Of a stretch of 41,581 nucleotides of DNA, positions 3,521-31,953 are shown one piece after another. The stretch lies in the IMG/VR virus record IMGVR_UViG_3300045988_101452; one strand, written 5' to 3'. The DNA comes from a virus. The translations under genes were made by a program, and so were the position numbers. The notes beneath the pieces are model-generated. The model saw only the letters and a list, made by a program, of their open reading frames with translations. It ran no database searches and was not told the DNA's origin. Positions within the stretch are counted from its first letter, which is position 1. Each line of letters begins with the position of its first letter.

Positions 3521-3599
3521 TATATTTCTCCTCTATTTTACTTTTTGTAAAGGAATAGTCAGGTATCGAACCTAATATAATAGACCATCTATCTATCCC

Positions 3600-3623
3600 A
3601 TATAAAAAGCGGATTTCTCCGCT
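3600..3623 (-). terminator. terminator/attenuator after major tail protein gene (AGCGGAGAAAUCCGCU + U-run)
   Basis: inverted repeat agcgga/tccgct plus A-run on plus strand. Confidence 0.5.
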
Positions 3624-11764: not shown

Positions 11765-12319
11765 TTATCGAATATTTTTTTGAAAATCTGGTAAGTCTTT
11801 TACATTTCTGATAGGGATAGCATTCTTTAACTTATTGCCCATTCCAGTTCCATAATAAAGTTGTTCCCATTTTGTCTTAGCTGTGTGGCATTTGCTACAA
11901 GCTATTGCAATGTTAGCTAAGTTAGTCCTATTCTCAGGCTCTACCTCATAAGGGACAATGTGGTCTCCGATGTTACCAGTTCTTACTCGCTTATGATTCA
12001 AACAATACTGACATAAATAGTTGTCACGTCTGAGTGCAATCTTTCTTATTGAGCGCCATTGTTTGCCTTGATAGAACTTATGTTGCTCTGCTTTAAATGG
12101 GTTTTTACTTCTCATTCGATCATAATCTTTGTATCGTTTACTATTATCAGTACGATTAGCCCATCGTTCTCTGCTTGCTTGATATGCTGCTTCTTTATCA
12201 GCGTGCTTAGTACAATAGTGCAGTGGTCTAATAACTACAGCGTGGCAGTTAGGCTCACGACAGCGTCCAGTCATTGGCAAGATAGCATCTCCTCTCATCA
12301 ACAATAAAAGGCTGCCCAT
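11765..12319 (-). CDS. HNH endonuclease (terminase-associated, cos-phage type); real start possibly internal Met
   Basis: CQYC...DHIVP...N...C..CH HNH motif; adjacent to terS. Confidence 0.75.
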   Translation of the reverse strand: MGSLLLLMRGDAILPMTGRCREPNCHAVVIRPLHYCTKHADKEAAYQASRERWANRTDNSKRYKDYDRMRSKNPFKAEQHKFYQGKQWRSIRKIALRRDNYLCQYCLNHKRVRTGNIGDHIVPYEVEPENRTNLANIAIACSKCHTAKTKWEQLYYGTGMGNKLKNAIPIRNVKDLPDFQKNIR

Positions 12320-12343
12320 TGGACAACCTGTAATAAAATATAA

Positions 12344-12415
12344 TTCAGGATAACGGGATTGAACCGTTCTATTCTAGCTTATGAAACTAGCGTGACGCCT
12401 TGCCACCCATCCTGT
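12344..12415 (-). tRNA. tRNA-like element with CAU anticodon loop (Met-like); non-canonical (A1-A72 mismatch, G8G9)
   Basis: hand-folded cloverleaf: acceptor ACAGGAT/ATCCTGA, D GTGG/TCAC, anticodon stem CTAGT/GCTAG with loop TTCATAA, T-arm AACGG-TTCAATC-CCGTT. Confidence 0.35.
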
Positions 12416-12793
12416 TTGAAGCGAAGTTTTACATACTATCAAATGGAAGTCCTCGCAAACCATTTAATACTGAACTCCTAGCTTTGAAGCCCACAATAGC
12501 AAGATAGAGGCTCGAACTCTATAACTTCTAATAGCGAAGTCGTTTCTATTCCTTGCTTACCCACTAAGCTGCTGAAAAACATTGGAAACCCATTTAACTT
12601 GCAATCCTTACGCAAGCACTTAGCTATAAACGTTTAATAGCAAGTCAGGGAGTCGAACCCTAACAAGCTTAGAAGTATATCCAACCGAACGAATTACATT
12701 TTGTTTGCTTTCGCTGATAACTTCATGCTACCATTATCGCATGTAAATCAGGAAATAAATGGGTTAAAAACGGGTCAAAAACGGAACGCAAAA

Positions 12794-13195
12794 TCAGTCC
12801 AAAGTATTTCTCCATAATCCATCCCTCAATGTTTTCTTAAATGATACGTATTGTTTTCTTGCAGCGTCTTCATCTAAGCAAACTCTTATTCCCACTTTAT
12901 ACCAAGATAACCGATGTTTAAATCTAGCGATAATAACATCCTTTACAATTGTTCCATGAATAACTTCCATTAATTCGTCAAGCGTTTGTTTCTGGTCATT
13001 AAGTCTACCAAGTTCTTTGTCAGCTTCTTTAATCAAATAGTTGCGCTCTTGTGGTGCAGTGTTTGAACTACTCCCACCACTTCCGATTCTTTCCTCATGT
13101 TTCTCACGAGTGATCCATCGTTCTCTTGAATTAATTTTAACTTGAAGCATTCCAGTCATGTAGTCACTTAATAACAAATCTAATCTATCCGCCAT
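12794..13195 (-). CDS. ArpU-family late transcription activator (candidate)
   Basis: 133 aa, position immediately upstream of packaging module, GGAGGAA RBS. Confidence 0.45.
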   Translation of the reverse strand: MADRLDLLLSDYMTGMLQVKINSRERWITREKHEERIGSGGSSSNTAPQERNYLIKEADKELGRLNDQKQTLDELMEVIHGTIVKDVIIARFKHRLSWYKVGIRVCLDEDAARKQYVSFKKTLRDGLWRNTLD

Positions 13196-13215
13196 TTAAA
13201 AGATTCCTCCGTCTG

Positions 13216-25752: not shown

Positions 25753-25959
25753 AACAATCATAAAAATTTAAGTAACTCTGCAAGGGCCGATACCATTGCA
25801 GGGTTTTCTTTTGTGTTTGGATTTTCAAGAGTTTCCGTTACAAACTTTTCGATAGCAGGACAGATATTTTCTTTTCTTTGTTGTGCTGATTCAATGGCGT
25901 TTTCAAGAAATGATTCTCCCATTTTAAACTCCTTTCATTTAATTTATTCTGCATACGCA

Positions 25960-25996
25960 GTAAGGGAAATTCAGGAATCGAACCTGTTCGCCAGTC
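25960..25996 (-). other. tRNA 3'-half-like fragment (T-arm CAGG-TTCGATT-CCTG + acceptor-like ATTTCCC)
   Basis: minus strand reads ...CAGGTTCGATTCCTGAATTTCCCT; no complete cloverleaf. Confidence 0.35.
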
Positions 25997-26007
25997 TTCC
26001 CTGCTCA

Positions 26008-28664: not shown

Positions 28665-28692
28665 TTTCTCCTTAATCATGTCTTGCCCGACA
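28665..28692. repeat. 28-bp perfect direct repeat copy B, upstream of integrase
   Basis: identical to 24196-24223. Confidence 0.9.
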
Positions 28693-28710
28693 ATAGAGCA
28701 GGAGAAAAAA

Positions 28711-29892
28711 ATGAATATTAAAGAAGTCAAAAAAAAAGACGGTACAACCGTCTATAAAGTAAATGTTTATCTTGGTGTAGATAGCCTAACAGGTAAGCAA
28801 GTACGTACCACGGTTACAGCCAAGAACCGTAAAACGTGCGAGAACAAAGCTCACCAAGCTATGAATAAGTTTATCAAAAATGGGTCTACTGTTGCAAGAG
28901 AAAAAGTTTCATTTGACAATTTTAATGCCTTAGCCGCTAGTTGGTTTGATTCTTATAAATTGACAGTAAAAGCAAATACTATCAGAATCAATAGTAATTT
29001 TTTAAAAAATTATATTTTGCCAGCGATCGGAAACTATAAAGTTGAGAAAATTACAACTATACTATTGCAAAATATTGTTAATGACTGGGCTAGAAATGCC
29101 AATACTGCTGAAATAGTTAATGGTAATCGTGAGAAGGGAAAAAGCAAAGACTATAAGCTATTACTCAATATCATCAAACGCATTCTCGATTATGGTATGC
29201 AACTAGGTGTCATCTCAGACAATCCAGCTATAAAAGTATTTTCTCCAAAACTTAAGACAAGAACAGTCAAAAAAATAAAGTATTTTAATAATGATGAACT
29301 TAAACGCTTCTTAGCTTACCTTGACACTTTAGAATCAACCACAGCAAATAAAAAGAGCGCTACTCTATACAAGCTTTTACTTGCTACTGGTTTGCGTATC
29401 TGTGAGGCTTTAGCCTTATCATGGTCTGATATTGATTTTGTCAATAATACCGTTAGTGTATCTAAGACACTCATACAATACAGCAATGAGATACAAGACA
29501 GTGCAAAAACAAAAGAAAGCAATCGTTTAGTTTCTGTAGATAGCGAGACAATTTCAATGTTGAAAGAGTGGAGAAAACAACAAAATGACGGTGCTATATC
29601 TTTGCATGATTCTTTAGTTTTCTCATATCATCAAAAAATGAGAACTTACGAACTCGAAAGACAGCACTTAGTTCGACACTTTAAAAACGCTAAAGTTCCT
29701 AACATAGGTTTTCATGGTTTCCGTCACACTCACGCAAGCCTACTAATGAACAATGATGTAAATCCTAAAGAAATTCAAATGAGATTAGGACATGCAGATT
29801 ATTCAATCACAATGAATTTGTACAGTCATCTTGCTAAAGAGAAAAAGAAAGAAACTGCTGAAAAGTTCGCTAATATACTTAAAGCACTATGA
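28711..29892 (+). CDS. int: tyrosine integrase (phage integrase family)
   Basis: RHTHASLL and LGHADYSITMNLYSH catalytic motifs; GGAG RBS. Confidence 0.85.
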   Translation: MNIKEVKKKDGTTVYKVNVYLGVDSLTGKQVRTTVTAKNRKTCENKAHQAMNKFIKNGSTVAREKVSFDNFNALAASWFDSYKLTVKANTIRINSNFLKNYILPAIGNYKVEKITTILLQNIVNDWARNANTAEIVNGNREKGKSKDYKLLLNIIKRILDYGMQLGVISDNPAIKVFSPKLKTRTVKKIKYFNNDELKRFLAYLDTLESTTANKKSATLYKLLLATGLRICEALALSWSDIDFVNNTVSVSKTLIQYSNEIQDSAKTKESNRLVSVDSETISMLKEWRKQQNDGAISLHDSLVFSYHQKMRTYELERQHLVRHFKNAKVPNIGFHGFRHTHASLLMNNDVNPKEIQMRLGHADYSITMNLYSHLAKEKKKETAEKFANILKAL

Positions 29893-30239: not shown

Positions 30240-30313
30240 TGGTTCTTGCTGGACTCGAACCAGCGACCGAACGGTTATGAGCCATTAGCTCTGACCAACT
30301 GAGCTAAAGAACC
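30240..30313 (-). tRNA. tRNA-Met (anticodon CAU)
   Basis: canonical cloverleaf by hand: GGTTCTT acceptor, D-arm AGCTCAGTTGGTCAGAGCT, anticodon loop CTCATAA, T-arm GCTGG-TTCGAGT-CCAGC. Confidence 0.8.
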
Positions 30314-31035: not shown

Positions 31036-31953
31036 TTATTTCCAAGCAATTTCTACTGTTTTTTGATTGATTGCTTGCATGAAACGGACGTACCAAGGTG
31101 CATCTGTTCTCCAACTATACTGTTTCAAGTCTTTTCCTGTTGTCTCTTTATAGATTTGACGAATAATTTTAAGTTGATCTTCATGAGACAAAGCAACTAC
31201 TTTATTTCCATCATAGTAATAAATAGTTCCTTGCGTTTTTCCTGTTTTTGCATCAATAATTTGATATGTAAATTTCATAAGGTCATCATCCTCCAATTGT
31301 GAATTATTATTTGCGTTATTGTTATTTTGTTCTGTAGAATTTCCACCAGCTAGTTGCTTCCATTGATTAGCGTTGATATAAGCCAAGTTCAAATCAAGCT
31401 GTCCGTTCCAGTTCATTAAAGTTCCTGACGAGCTATACTGATGAATCGCTGCAGAACTCCAAGCGCCATATCCTTTGCCATCTGACCAAGGTTCTGATTG
31501 ATAGCCTGTAGGACTTGTAGAAGCATATTGAGCAACCCACAAAGCATTACTACTTGAAATAGTACTCCAATTAAACTGACGAGTGACTTCTGCAGACATG
31601 TAAATCATTGGATTGATGCCCGTTTTTTCTTTTACACGATTCAAAAATTGACGAGCACCAACATTTCCCCATGCGTTGATTGCCCCAGCTTCGAAATCTA
31701 AGACGAGAACTGCTTTACCAATATATTCTTTAACAACACTGATAAAGAAGTCTGCCTCAGCGATTGGATTTCCAGTGCTAGCGAAATGATAGAAACCTAG
31801 AAGCTTATTTGCTTGAGTGACTTGACCAGCTTGTTCTCGCCAAGTTGGATTAATATATTTTGTTCCCTCAGTAGCTTTAATAAATACAAAGTCAGAAGGA
31901 ACAATTCCAGCATTCAATTCTGCTTGATAGCTGGAAATGTCAATTCCATTCAT
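31036..31953 (-). CDS. endolysin, GH25 muramidase N-terminal domain + C-terminal cell-wall-binding domain
   Basis: MNGIDISSYQ...FVFIKATEG...GFYHF motifs of GH25 lysozymes. Confidence 0.8.
   Translation of the reverse strand: MNGIDISSYQAELNAGIVPSDFVFIKATEGTKYINPTWREQAGQVTQANKLLGFYHFASTGNPIAEADFFISVVKEYIGKAVLVLDFEAGAINAWGNVGARQFLNRVKEKTGINPMIYMSAEVTRQFNWSTISSSNALWVAQYASTSPTGYQSEPWSDGKGYGAWSSAAIHQYSSSGTLMNWNGQLDLNLAYINANQWKQLAGGNSTEQNNNNANNNSQLEDDDLMKFTYQIIDAKTGKTQGTIYYYDGNKVVALSHEDQLKIIRQIYKETTGKDLKQYSWRTDAPWYVRFMQAINQKTVEIAWK

Follow-up and report, generated by a model that had tools for sequence, protein, structure and literature searches.

What are three tRNA T-arm motifs doing in a stretch of phage DNA that does not appear to code for any protein? 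The question is raised by the minus strand of positions 12,330 to 12,790 in a viral sequence of 41,581 nucleotides (IMG/VR record IMGVR_UViG_3300045988_101452). The sequence is here called the window; it belongs to a Lactococcus phage of the P335 group, BK5-T/4268 type, and is probably a complete, circularly permuted genome. The stretch comprises 470 bases and separates the gene of a late transcription activator from the genes for DNA packaging. The original prediction, made from the letters alone, left three options for it: phage tRNAs, degenerate tRNA remnants or tRNA-like structured RNAs. We here propose that the stretch is the leader of the late operon and forms a modular "tRNA island". 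Its element 1 would be a tRNA; its elements 2 and 3 would be tRNA-like modules that do not work as adaptors but as marks for RNA processing. We rate the chance that this identification and the processing role are both correct at about 55%; our confidence is high for the former and moderate for the latter.

The starting observation holds. The three minus-strand motifs were found as GGTTCAATCCC at 12355-12365, AGTTCGAGCCT at 12508-12518, which is one base off the position originally reported, and GGTTCGACTCC at 12649-12659. They sit in T-arm hairpins (12352-12368, 12505-12521 and 12646-12662), all of which carry a loop of 7 nt on a perfect 5-bp stem, with a closing pair of the G53-C61 type. The pattern RGTTCRANYCY occurs five times in the window versus 1.24 times expected, and none of 100 shuffled sequences reached five. 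With both strands counted, the whole 41.6-kb window has six complete T-arm hairpins, while 200 first-order Markov simulations yield an expectation of 0.91. Five of the six have an acceptor-like partner (0.39 expected), and three of them fall within the 470-base stretch, on one strand. The even spacing that had been remarked upon is real as a measurement, the distances being 141 and 153 nt, but it carries no significance: in relatives the distances range from 0 to more than 1000 nt. A meaningful period was therefore rejected.

Element 1 fits the first of the three options. ARAGORN calls tRNA-Met(CAT) at 12344-12415(-), and the 72-nt cloverleaf has the features described at the outset: G8G9, the anticodon loop TTCATAA and a mismatch, here A·A, at 1-72. 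The Rfam tRNA model RF00005 matches it at 12347-12413(-) with 24.8 bits (E = 0.012), which does not reach the gathering score of 29; close homologs obtain 27.1 bits with the same model. BLAST revealed 11 distinct homologs, in leaders of P335-type phages and in the virulent 949-group phages 949, PMBT69, P1048 and LW81, to whose tRNA(CAU) gene element 1 is 78-93% identical. When nine distinct homologs are laid on the cloverleaf, 94.7% of the cells are paired, compared with 34-43% if the partners are slid. Compensatory changes are seen in pairs 3-70, 6-67, 27-43 and 49-65 (tRNA numbering), i.e., in three stems. The covariation score is 0.222 versus 0.149 in shuffles, none of 500 shuffles reached it, and RNAalifold predicts the cloverleaf from the homologs unaided. 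The cloverleaf is thus under purifying selection.

This tRNA is not a canonical one. Of the core nucleotides, the GG of the D-loop, U33, A37, G53-C61 and the T-loop sequence TTCAA are present; U8 is replaced by G and A14 by C. These departures, A1·A72, G8, G9 and C14, are invariant, G8 and C14 being found in nine of nine homologs. CCA is not encoded. With C-G, U-A, A-U, G-C and U·G, the anticodon stem is of the elongator type, and U-A is found at 11-24. Since an initiator should have three G-C pairs at the bottom of the anticodon stem and A11-U24, element 1 was rejected as tRNA-fMet; only the 1-72 mismatch would fit. The P1048 copy has the anticodon UAU, which hints at reading of AUA. Element 1 may possibly decode AUA (Ile) as a lysidine-modified tRNA-Ile2, which we mention as a lead. 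AUA is used 13.5-17.8 times per 1000 codons in the phage, a number that is not decisive without a host reference. Taken together, we propose that element 1 functions as a tRNA(CAU), albeit a non-canonical one, and would be made late in infection.

The 949-group homolog is annotated as a tRNA (tRNA-Met) in PMBT69 only and not in 949, P1048 and LW81. It lies at 1501-1573 of the region taken from phage 949 (L060), where it is overlaid by a "hypothetical protein ORF90", and at 301-373 of those from P1048 and LW81 (L061 and L062). The window also has a canonical tRNA(CAU) with 66.7 bits in Rfam at 30240-30313 (-), between the integrase and lysin genes, preceded by a promoter-like sequence and followed by a T-run. 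The two CAU tRNAs of the phage may thus be divided between Met and Ile2.

Elements 2 and 3 are built differently. No cloverleaf could be completed for them at first sight, and none can be completed now: a D-arm and a proper anticodon arm of 5 bp with a 7-nt loop that carries U33 and R37 are absent from both. What they do contain is an acceptor/T-arm minihelix, i.e., a 7-bp acceptor, a contiguous 5-bp T-stem, a 7-nt loop and the pair G53-C61. In element 2 the acceptor strands AGCAAGG and TCTTGCT form seven of seven pairs, one of them G·U, and the T-arm reads TAGAG-TTCGAGC-CTCTA. In element 3 the acceptor-like strands AGCTTGT and ACTTGCT form five of seven pairs, with two U·U mismatches, and the T-arm reads TAGGG-TTCGACT-CCCTG. 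This amounts to 12 of 12 pairs in the minihelix of element 2 and 10 of 12 in that of element 3, the T-stems being perfect in both. The discriminator is A in either case, and element 3 does not encode CCA. The acceptor 5' strand is separated from the T-stem by 29 nt in element 2 and by 0 nt in element 3, as opposed to 39-42 nt in the real tRNAs of the same loci. The 29-nt insert of element 2 folds into a 5-bp stem (ACTTC/GAAGT) with the 7-nt loop GCTATTA, which has neither U33 nor R37.

The search programs give the same picture. The Rfam tRNA model does not match element 2 or 3 even at E <= 10. ARAGORN, relaxed to a threshold of 80%, offers aberrant models only. For element 3 there is a 94-nt model whose D-stem has 3 bp and whose anticodon has 4 nt, with the probable -10 box serving as acceptor strand; for element 2 there is an improbable tRNA-Phe(AAA). 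Apart from the latter, the calls have an "anticodon" of 2 or 4 nt. Elements 2 and 3 were rejected as full tRNAs. In mitochondrial mode at the same threshold, the output of ARAGORN was noise, with ten calls that overlap one another on the two strands, and its mode for transfer-messenger RNA (tmRNA) found nothing in the leader or the window. ROOL (RF03087) has no match in the window at the gathering threshold of 99.1 bits or at E <= 10, and the Rfam scan detected no GOLLD there. Other Rfam families gave only sub-threshold chance matches (snR73, sau-66, TtnuCD22 and two fragments of long non-coding RNAs). A tRNA fragment of the attP type was also rejected, since the integrase is 16 kb away and the modules make up a covarying family with many copies.

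This family is the reason why we regard elements 2 and 3 as members of a so far undescribed class of reduced tRNA-like modules that are neither tRNAs nor random remnants, which is the third option of the original prediction. The layout is [T]AGCAAG, an insert of 0-30 nt, the T-arm, (A)CTTGCT, A and TT. Sites were anchored on the 3' tag CTTGCT[AT]T alone, with no pairing assumed, and 43 of 51 distinct sites proved to be modules. Among the sites bearing a T-loop, 35 of 36 have a perfect 5-bp T-stem, which is realized by 14 different stem sequences (CAGGG/CCCTG, CTAGG/CCTAG, TAGAG/CTCTA, CACTG/CAGTG and CGAGG/CCTCG among them). In 39 distinct modules, with acceptor and T-arm spliced together, both partners have changed in nine of the 12 pairs; covariation scores 0.519 versus 0.191 in shuffles, and again 0 of 500 shuffles reached it. 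In all 39 the discriminator is A, U-rich sequence comes next and CCA is not encoded. Other acceptors are also found in this architecture (GACTCAAA/TTTGAGTC, TAGCTAA/TTAGTTA and GCAGG/CTTGC). Inserts of 21-30 nt hold small covarying hairpins (ACAC/GTGT, GTAC/GTAC, TACG/CGTA, GCAC/GTGC), and in some subtypes the loop deviates from the T-loop consensus (CTCGAAC, TTCGNGN). Many pairs of the modules, and of the hairpin at the end of the leader, are G·U in the sense transcript and A·C mismatches on the other strand. Since the G·U pairs fit the sense strand only, the functional molecule is most likely an RNA that is sense to the late genes, not duplex DNA.

Of course, conserved scraps of tRNA might be nothing but debris. 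According to this explanation, elements 2 and 3 are decayed tRNA genes and scars left by the gain and loss of cassettes, and only element 1, if any, is functional. The site is indeed a hot spot of cassette exchange with chimeric joints; locus L010, for instance, fuses the 5' half of a module to the 3' end of a tRNA(CAU). Longer versions of element 3 in TP901-1, L004 and L007, with a class-II-like body and an anticodon-like loop, suggest descent from a real tRNA, and position 58 in the loop of element 2 is not conserved. The pattern of conservation, however, is not that of decay. The 23-nt core of element 3, GGTTCGACTCCCTGACTTGCTAT, recurs exactly in at least 120 IMG/VR contigs in which the flanks are mosaic; many of these contigs lack a detectable homolog of the activator of this phage. 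A 49-nt probe matched 55 phage records, all of Lactococcus and none annotated at the site. The 60-nt core of element 2 is near-invariant across 34 distinct contexts, the 5' flanks of which are of at least four unrelated kinds, its variation being confined to the linker and to T-loop positions 58 and 60, which is unlike neutral debris. The T-stems of the family differ in sequence while pairing is kept, and the element-3 minihelix is retained in the shortest leaders, of 140-146 nt, which have no tRNA. With modules more conserved than their surroundings and stems that covary, degenerate remnants are the least supported of the three original options, and we consider the debris explanation unlikely.

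How the leader is put together becomes evident from its relatives. Fifty-seven related loci were gathered with the activator protein as anchor; the regions of TP901-1, TP712 and the 949 group were taken from annotated records. Between a conserved -10 box and a conserved hairpin, the leader measures 140 to about 1600 nt and consists of interchangeable modules. In the shortest leaders (L019, L027, L013, L020) nothing but the element-3 minihelix stands between the conserved 5' stem and the hairpin. The 5' leader stem is a separate module in most loci, with 91-100% identity, and a second sequence version of it keeps the closing stem ATGAAG...CTTCAT. The spacer at 12559-12625 has conserved flanks and an inner hairpin that varies in sequence with the pairing kept (CTTGC/GCAAG, GCTACT/AGTAGT) in TP901-1, BK5-T, L007 and L039. 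The spacer at 12416-12496 also precedes a tRNA-Met in L028 and a tRNA-Pro in L051.

The slot between the -10 box and the hairpin, which includes element 1 in the window, can hold other RNAs. Some relatives, TP901-1 included, have a tRNA-Lys(UUU) there with 55.3 bits, others a tRNA-Pro(UGG) with 61.8 bits. In L004 and L007 a tRNA of 44-46 bits is missed by ARAGORN and looks, by eye, like tRNA-Ser(GCU). In the distant phages L052-L055 the slot contains a tRNA-Asn, a full ROOL RNA (168-177 bits at a threshold of 99.1) and a tRNA-Trp, and the ROOL match overlaps the ends of both flanking tRNAs, leaving no spacer. Because the two tRNAs flank ROOL in this way, its ends may be set by tRNA processing. 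The ROOL matches (RF03087) are at 3692-4294 in L052, 3600-4196 in L053, 3617-4237 in L054 and 3617-4219 in L055, and these phages have a 56-60% identical Alt-like activator.

Some further observations concern the cassettes. The tRNA-Lys(UUU) of TP901-1 is unannotated; it was detected by Rfam and ARAGORN in the late leader between alt and terS, at L001 1800-1870 (-), which corresponds to about 13136-13206 of AF304433.1. Downstream of it come an 88-nt class-II-like tRNA-like unit (ARAGORN: "tRNA-Ala(cgc)") and a homolog of element 2. A structured cassette of about 200 nt (...GGTTGATAATAATATTCC...CAAGGGTTACAGCGTAGCAAG...) is common to the leaders of L005 (about 950-1180), L016, L030 and L021. It ends in a tRNA-like module, has no match in Rfam and may be a further undescribed non-coding RNA. 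A recurrent motif, GGTTTGAATCC, often followed by TAAAA, is T-loop-like and has a short, partly covarying stem; it is present in many cassettes of L001, L004, L005, L010, L021 and L030 and in the window at 12679-12687 (-) as CGGTTGGAT.

The surroundings of the stretch agree with what had been stated originally, in that it lies between the late activator and the packaging genes. On the minus strand the order is DUF722/Alt-like activator, non-coding stretch, HNH endonuclease, TerS and TerL. The activator protein was identified by Pfam (DUF722, 3.6e-45) and PHROG 2198 ("Alt-like transcription activator", 1e-46), the RefSeq annotation of its BK5-T and 4268 homologs is concordant, and the HNH domain of the first late gene was confirmed by domain/profile search. 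The stretch is also non-coding as claimed, its sole open reading frames (ORFs) having 40-45 codons and TTG starts. One of them, a 45-codon ORF over element 2 (12478-12615, -), was considered as a small protein. It is open in TP901-1 and BK5-T; in most related contexts an in-frame TGA directly 5' of it is followed by no start codon, and its variable positions are not biased to the third codon position. For these two reasons the small-protein reading was rejected.

Directly after the stop codon of the activator gene begin three imperfect direct repeats with a period of 10-11 bp, and the -10 boxes come next. The repeats are a putative binding site of the activator at a late promoter; the distant relative L052 has four repeats of the same kind. 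Of 58 activator-anchored loci, 50 have kept the -10 box, and transcription is predicted to start at about 12718-12731. In TP901-1 the late promoter lies upstream of terS, and its repeats at -76 to -32 are the reported binding site of the Alt protein (PMC3152322). On the basis of the repeats, the -10 box and this precedent, the stretch is read as the 5' leader of the late operon (HNH, TerS, TerL and morphogenesis genes), which would be transcribed from the minus strand under control of an activator-dependent promoter. At the other end of the leader, the longest HNH ORF opens with the ATG at 12319, as given by the ORF finder, and this ATG sits inside the loop of the terminator-like hairpin. The TTG at 12280, which follows GAGAGGAG, is the more probable start. 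The features are compiled in Table 1.

Table 1. Features of the late leader and its neighbourhood in the window.
Feature	Position	Strand	Basis or remark
Late transcription activator gene (DUF722/Alt-like)	12794..13195	-	directly upstream of leader
Three imperfect direct repeats, CCGTTTTTGA / CCCGTTTTTAA / CCCATTTATTT, 10-11 bp period	12753..12784	-	read from sequence
Two overlapping extended -10-like boxes, TGCGATAAT and TGGTAGCAT	12725..12741	-	read from sequence
Conserved 5' leader stem GAAGTTATC...GATATACTTC enclosing the CGGTTGGAT motif	12672..12724	-	
Element 3, Type A tRNA-like minihelix	12638..12669	-	
Spacer module AGCTAAGTG ... CAGCTTAGTGGGT flanking variable hairpin CTTGC-GTAAGGAT-GCAAG (12598-12616)	12559..12625	-	
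Element 2, Type C tRNA-like module	12497..12557	-	
Spacer module before tRNA, hairpin AAATGG...CCATTT at 12441-12465	12416..12496	-	
Element 1, phage tRNA(CAU) gene, A1·A72, G8, G9, C14	12344..12415	-	ARAGORN, Rfam, homologs
Terminator-like hairpin AGGTTGTCC-AAT-GGGCAGCCT, then U-tract TTTTATTG	12302..12329	-	leader 3' boundary
Ribosome-binding site GAGAGGAG and probable TTG start of HNH gene at 12280	12278..12296	-	read from sequence
Integrase gene	28678-29892		
Lysin gene	31036-31953		

The late leader is not the only place where such modules occur. tRNA-like modules are found in three leader or spacer positions of the phage, each in sense orientation and shortly before a ribosome-binding site (RBS). 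The original prediction had noted neither the two additional positions nor the probable nature of the stretch as a transcribed late leader, its conserved terminal hairpin or the hypervariable exchange of cassettes at this site. One, in the early-lytic leader at 25964-26001 (-), is composed of GGGAAG, a 9-nt insert, CAGG-TTCGATT-CCTG and ATTTCCC. The switch operator TGTGATATCGCTCACA and a cro-like gene stand on either side of this module, which is followed by a small hairpin (25949-25960) and the RBS and is conserved in TP712, bIL309, D7138, 63301 and BK5-T. The other, at 3552-3599 (-), is in the spacer that separates the gene of the major tail protein from those for tail assembly and consists of GGGATAG, a 17-nt hairpin insert, TTAGG-TTCGATA-CCTGA and CTATTCC. 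It comes directly after a terminator-like hairpin (3609-3622) with its U-tract (3604-3608) and is 92-95% conserved in 19 phage records, comprising BK5-T, 4268, bIL286 and others.

What could reduced tRNAs be good for in an mRNA leader? RNase P, RNase Z and the CCA-adding enzyme need no more of a tRNA than its acceptor/T-arm minihelix, which is their minimal substrate. For this reason elements 2 and 3 are proposed to act as RNase P/RNase Z punctuation in the leader transcript. Precursors that lack CCA and have a U-rich 3' sequence are RNase Z substrates in Bacillus. That all 39 modules present this context gives no more than indirect support to the predicted cleavage of elements 2 and 3 by RNase P and RNase Z and to the addition of CCA. 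Cleavage at the modules would free the tRNA or, in relatives, other tRNAs or the ROOL RNA. It would also detach the leader and leave a late mRNA that starts a few nucleotides before the hairpin at 12309-12329 and is capped by it at the 5' end. In Firmicutes such a hairpin could protect the monophosphorylated 5' end of the mRNA from 5'-exonuclease. Partial termination at the same hairpin would result in more leader RNA than mRNA. It is tempting to go further and to assume that P335-type phages use a dedicated minihelix family to punctuate early, late and structural-gene transcripts via host RNase P and RNase Z, thereby releasing tRNAs or ROOL and creating stabilized, hairpin-capped mRNA 5' ends. 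This generalization is tentative, and we would sooner bet against it than on it.

Several points weigh against the leader being such an island with processing marks. The late promoter and its start site are predictions from sequence, and transcript, 5'- or 3'-end or cleavage data for this or related phages were not found in the literature. The paper on differential RNA sequencing (dRNA-seq) of MG1363 reports 28 small RNAs in prophage intergenic regions. Element 1 stays below the Rfam gathering score, lacks U8 and A14 and is mismatched at 1-72, so that its activity in translation is presumptive. The two U·U mismatches in the acceptor helix of element 3 are conserved. In element 2, position 58 of the T-loop varies, whereas it is A in nearly all tRNAs, and a true T-loop fold is not guaranteed; its stems are invariant and thus contribute no support by covariation. 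The set of 39 modules was in part chosen by pairing, the best-pairing 5' strands having been taken, and its percentage of paired positions is inflated as a result. That the acceptor-like sequences hardly vary could be due to a partner that reads their sequence and not to a helix. Finally, a hairpin with a U-tract directly before the late genes could be a strong terminator, which would demand an unexplained antitermination step.

Instead of marking cleavage sites in cis, the modules could be mimics that act in trans. Once excised, they would be decoys or sponges for host factors that bind the acceptor/T-arm of tRNAs, which would shield the tRNAs of host or phage in the late phase of infection. 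Such factors might be tRNA-targeting abortive-infection toxins, nucleotidyltransferase toxins, the CCA-adding enzyme, EF-Tu or modification enzymes. The modules have precisely those parts of a tRNA by which acceptor-end enzymes recognize it, and a strongly conserved acceptor sequence would suit a sequence-specific protein partner. The real tRNAs at the site include Lys(UUU), which is a frequent target of anticodon nucleases. However, no defence-related partner is known or encoded nearby, and the whole basis of the idea is analogy. The modules reside in 5' untranslated regions and intergenic spacers directly before RBSs, where a cis-acting role in mRNA maturation fits better. As the principal function, decoys are thus quite unlikely, although the modules might act in this way in addition to being processing marks.

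The hairpin at the end of the leader deserves a closer look in this context. The hairpin proper (12309-12329) has 9 bp, of which five are G-C and two G·U, a free energy of -12.6 kcal/mol and a z-score of -3.0. It has the sequence features of an intrinsic terminator, a G+C-rich stem followed directly by a U-tract, and may terminate part of the late transcripts. It is conserved in 158 instances across the loci; the loop varies, the stem is kept by wobble-compatible changes and the U-tract is near-invariant. If it terminates, the leader structures could be put-like elements that act in cis on RNA polymerase and achieve processive antitermination, with read-through of this hairpin and of internal terminators. 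The arrangement would resemble PR'-6S-tR' of lambda, with antitermination mediated by RNA as in HK022. The position of so widely conserved a hairpin and U-tract between the promoter and the first late gene speaks for this, as does the fact that structured modules are found just downstream of the early-lytic and the late promoter, as put sites are. But a T-loop with a G-C closing pair on an acceptor-like helix is specific for tRNA recognition and would not be needed in a put-like fold; the module at 3552-3599 comes after, not before, its terminator-like hairpin; and the content of the leader is hugely variable among phages that share the same hairpin. We consider antitermination by these elements improbable.

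That the motifs act as DNA, be it as a pac/cos signal, as an activator or recombinase site or as a target of cassette-exchange recombination, is hardly credible. It is true that the packaging genes follow the stretch directly, that TAGCAAG...CTTGCTA forms an inverted repeat, that the CTTGCTAT tag marks cassette boundaries and that several deposited phage records start or end within the leader. But the modules are common to cos-type (with HNH: BK5-T, 4268, the window) and pac-type phages (TP901-1, Tuc2009) with unrelated TerS, the record start points differ among phages, the ends of the BK5-T record fall downstream of HNH, outside the leader, and neither the complementary strand nor the other arm of a cruciform could form the pairs that are G·U in the stems. 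The records in question are OP323077 (D6890), OP323076 (D4840), OP323071 (D2544) and OP323074 (D4044). They start or end inside the leader at different positions, equivalent to about 12726 and about 12682 of the window and to a point within the minihelix. With ends that differ in this D-series and with BK5-T ending after HNH, a cos site in the leader is not supported.

The island of a tRNA and processing marks that we favour has parts that are already known in other settings, such as phage tRNAs, tRNA islands with ROOL and tRNA-like minihelices. Like a phage tRNA island, the site holds Lys, Pro, Ser, Asn or Trp tRNAs in relatives of the phage, and the tRNA cluster of the 949 group contains the homolog of element 1 among tRNA-Cys, Trp, Asn and Pro. 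Unlike such islands, the one described here belongs to a small temperate phage and is placed in the leader of its late operon, the units are for the most part incomplete tRNAs, and the tRNA of the window is off consensus (A1·A72, G8, C14) and sub-threshold in Rfam. Minihelices or tRNA-like domains occur in tmRNA, in MALAT1 mascRNA, in tRNA-like structures of viruses and in armless mitochondrial tRNAs. The modules share with them the coaxial acceptor/T-arm stack, the loop of the UUCGA type, the G-C closing pair, the lack of a D-arm, the reduced or absent anticodon arm and the single-stranded 3' end after the discriminator. They differ from them in having no G3·U70 and in being located within 5' leaders or spacers, not at the 3' end of a genome or mRNA.

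Punctuation by tRNAs is known from the mitochondrial model, from co-transcripts of tRNA and mRNA such as the tufB operon of E. coli and from RNase P cuts in operon spacers. The phage leaders are similar in that tRNA or tRNA-like units stand between functional RNAs or ORFs on one strand and in that ROOL abuts tRNAs; they are different in that the units are reduced minihelices, the processing of which is predicted from sequence. Such a use of minihelices in place of real tRNAs in phage leaders was not encountered in the searchable literature. The late leader of lambda (PR' - 6S RNA - tR') displays the same succession of late promoter, short non-coding transcribed region, terminator-like hairpin and first late gene. 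Here, in contrast, a DNA-binding activator of the Alt/DUF722 type takes the place of a Q-type antiterminator, and the leader is full of tRNA-type units. In prophages, tRNAs are known as neighbours of ROOL and GOLLD, with which they may be co-transcribed (PMC5737381, PMC12286853). The loci compared here show ROOL in the same slot of distant phages that have the same activator family and 5' leader. The modules of the window, of 32-61 nt, are not related in sequence to ROOL, which has about 580 nt. Neither Rfam nor the searchable literature contained the family of reduced tRNA-like modules in P335-type operon leaders, the link between the ROOL/tRNA slot and an activator-dependent late promoter, or the non-canonical tRNA(CAU) that temperate and virulent lactococcal phages have in common.

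TP901-1, Tuc2009, BK5-T and P335 are model phages of the dairy field. Their late-promoter region has been studied, and the leader is annotated as empty in 55 of 55 matching records. It is now seen to hold tRNA genes, as exemplified by the unannotated tRNA-Lys(UUU) of TP901-1, and a conserved family of tRNA-like modules. Thresholds of the Rfam or tRNAscan type appear to miss a conserved non-canonical phage tRNA. The phages thus provide a genetically tractable system for finding out how tRNA-like structures shape the maturation of phage mRNA and the timing of tRNA supply. The presence of ROOL in the same slot ties the unexplained association of ROOL and GOLLD with tRNAs to a defined, activator-dependent late promoter and suggests how the ends of these RNAs arise. 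If the punctuation is real, the ends of ROOL-type RNAs would be defined by the enzymes of tRNA processing, and phages would punctuate their transcripts in a way analogous to mitochondria.

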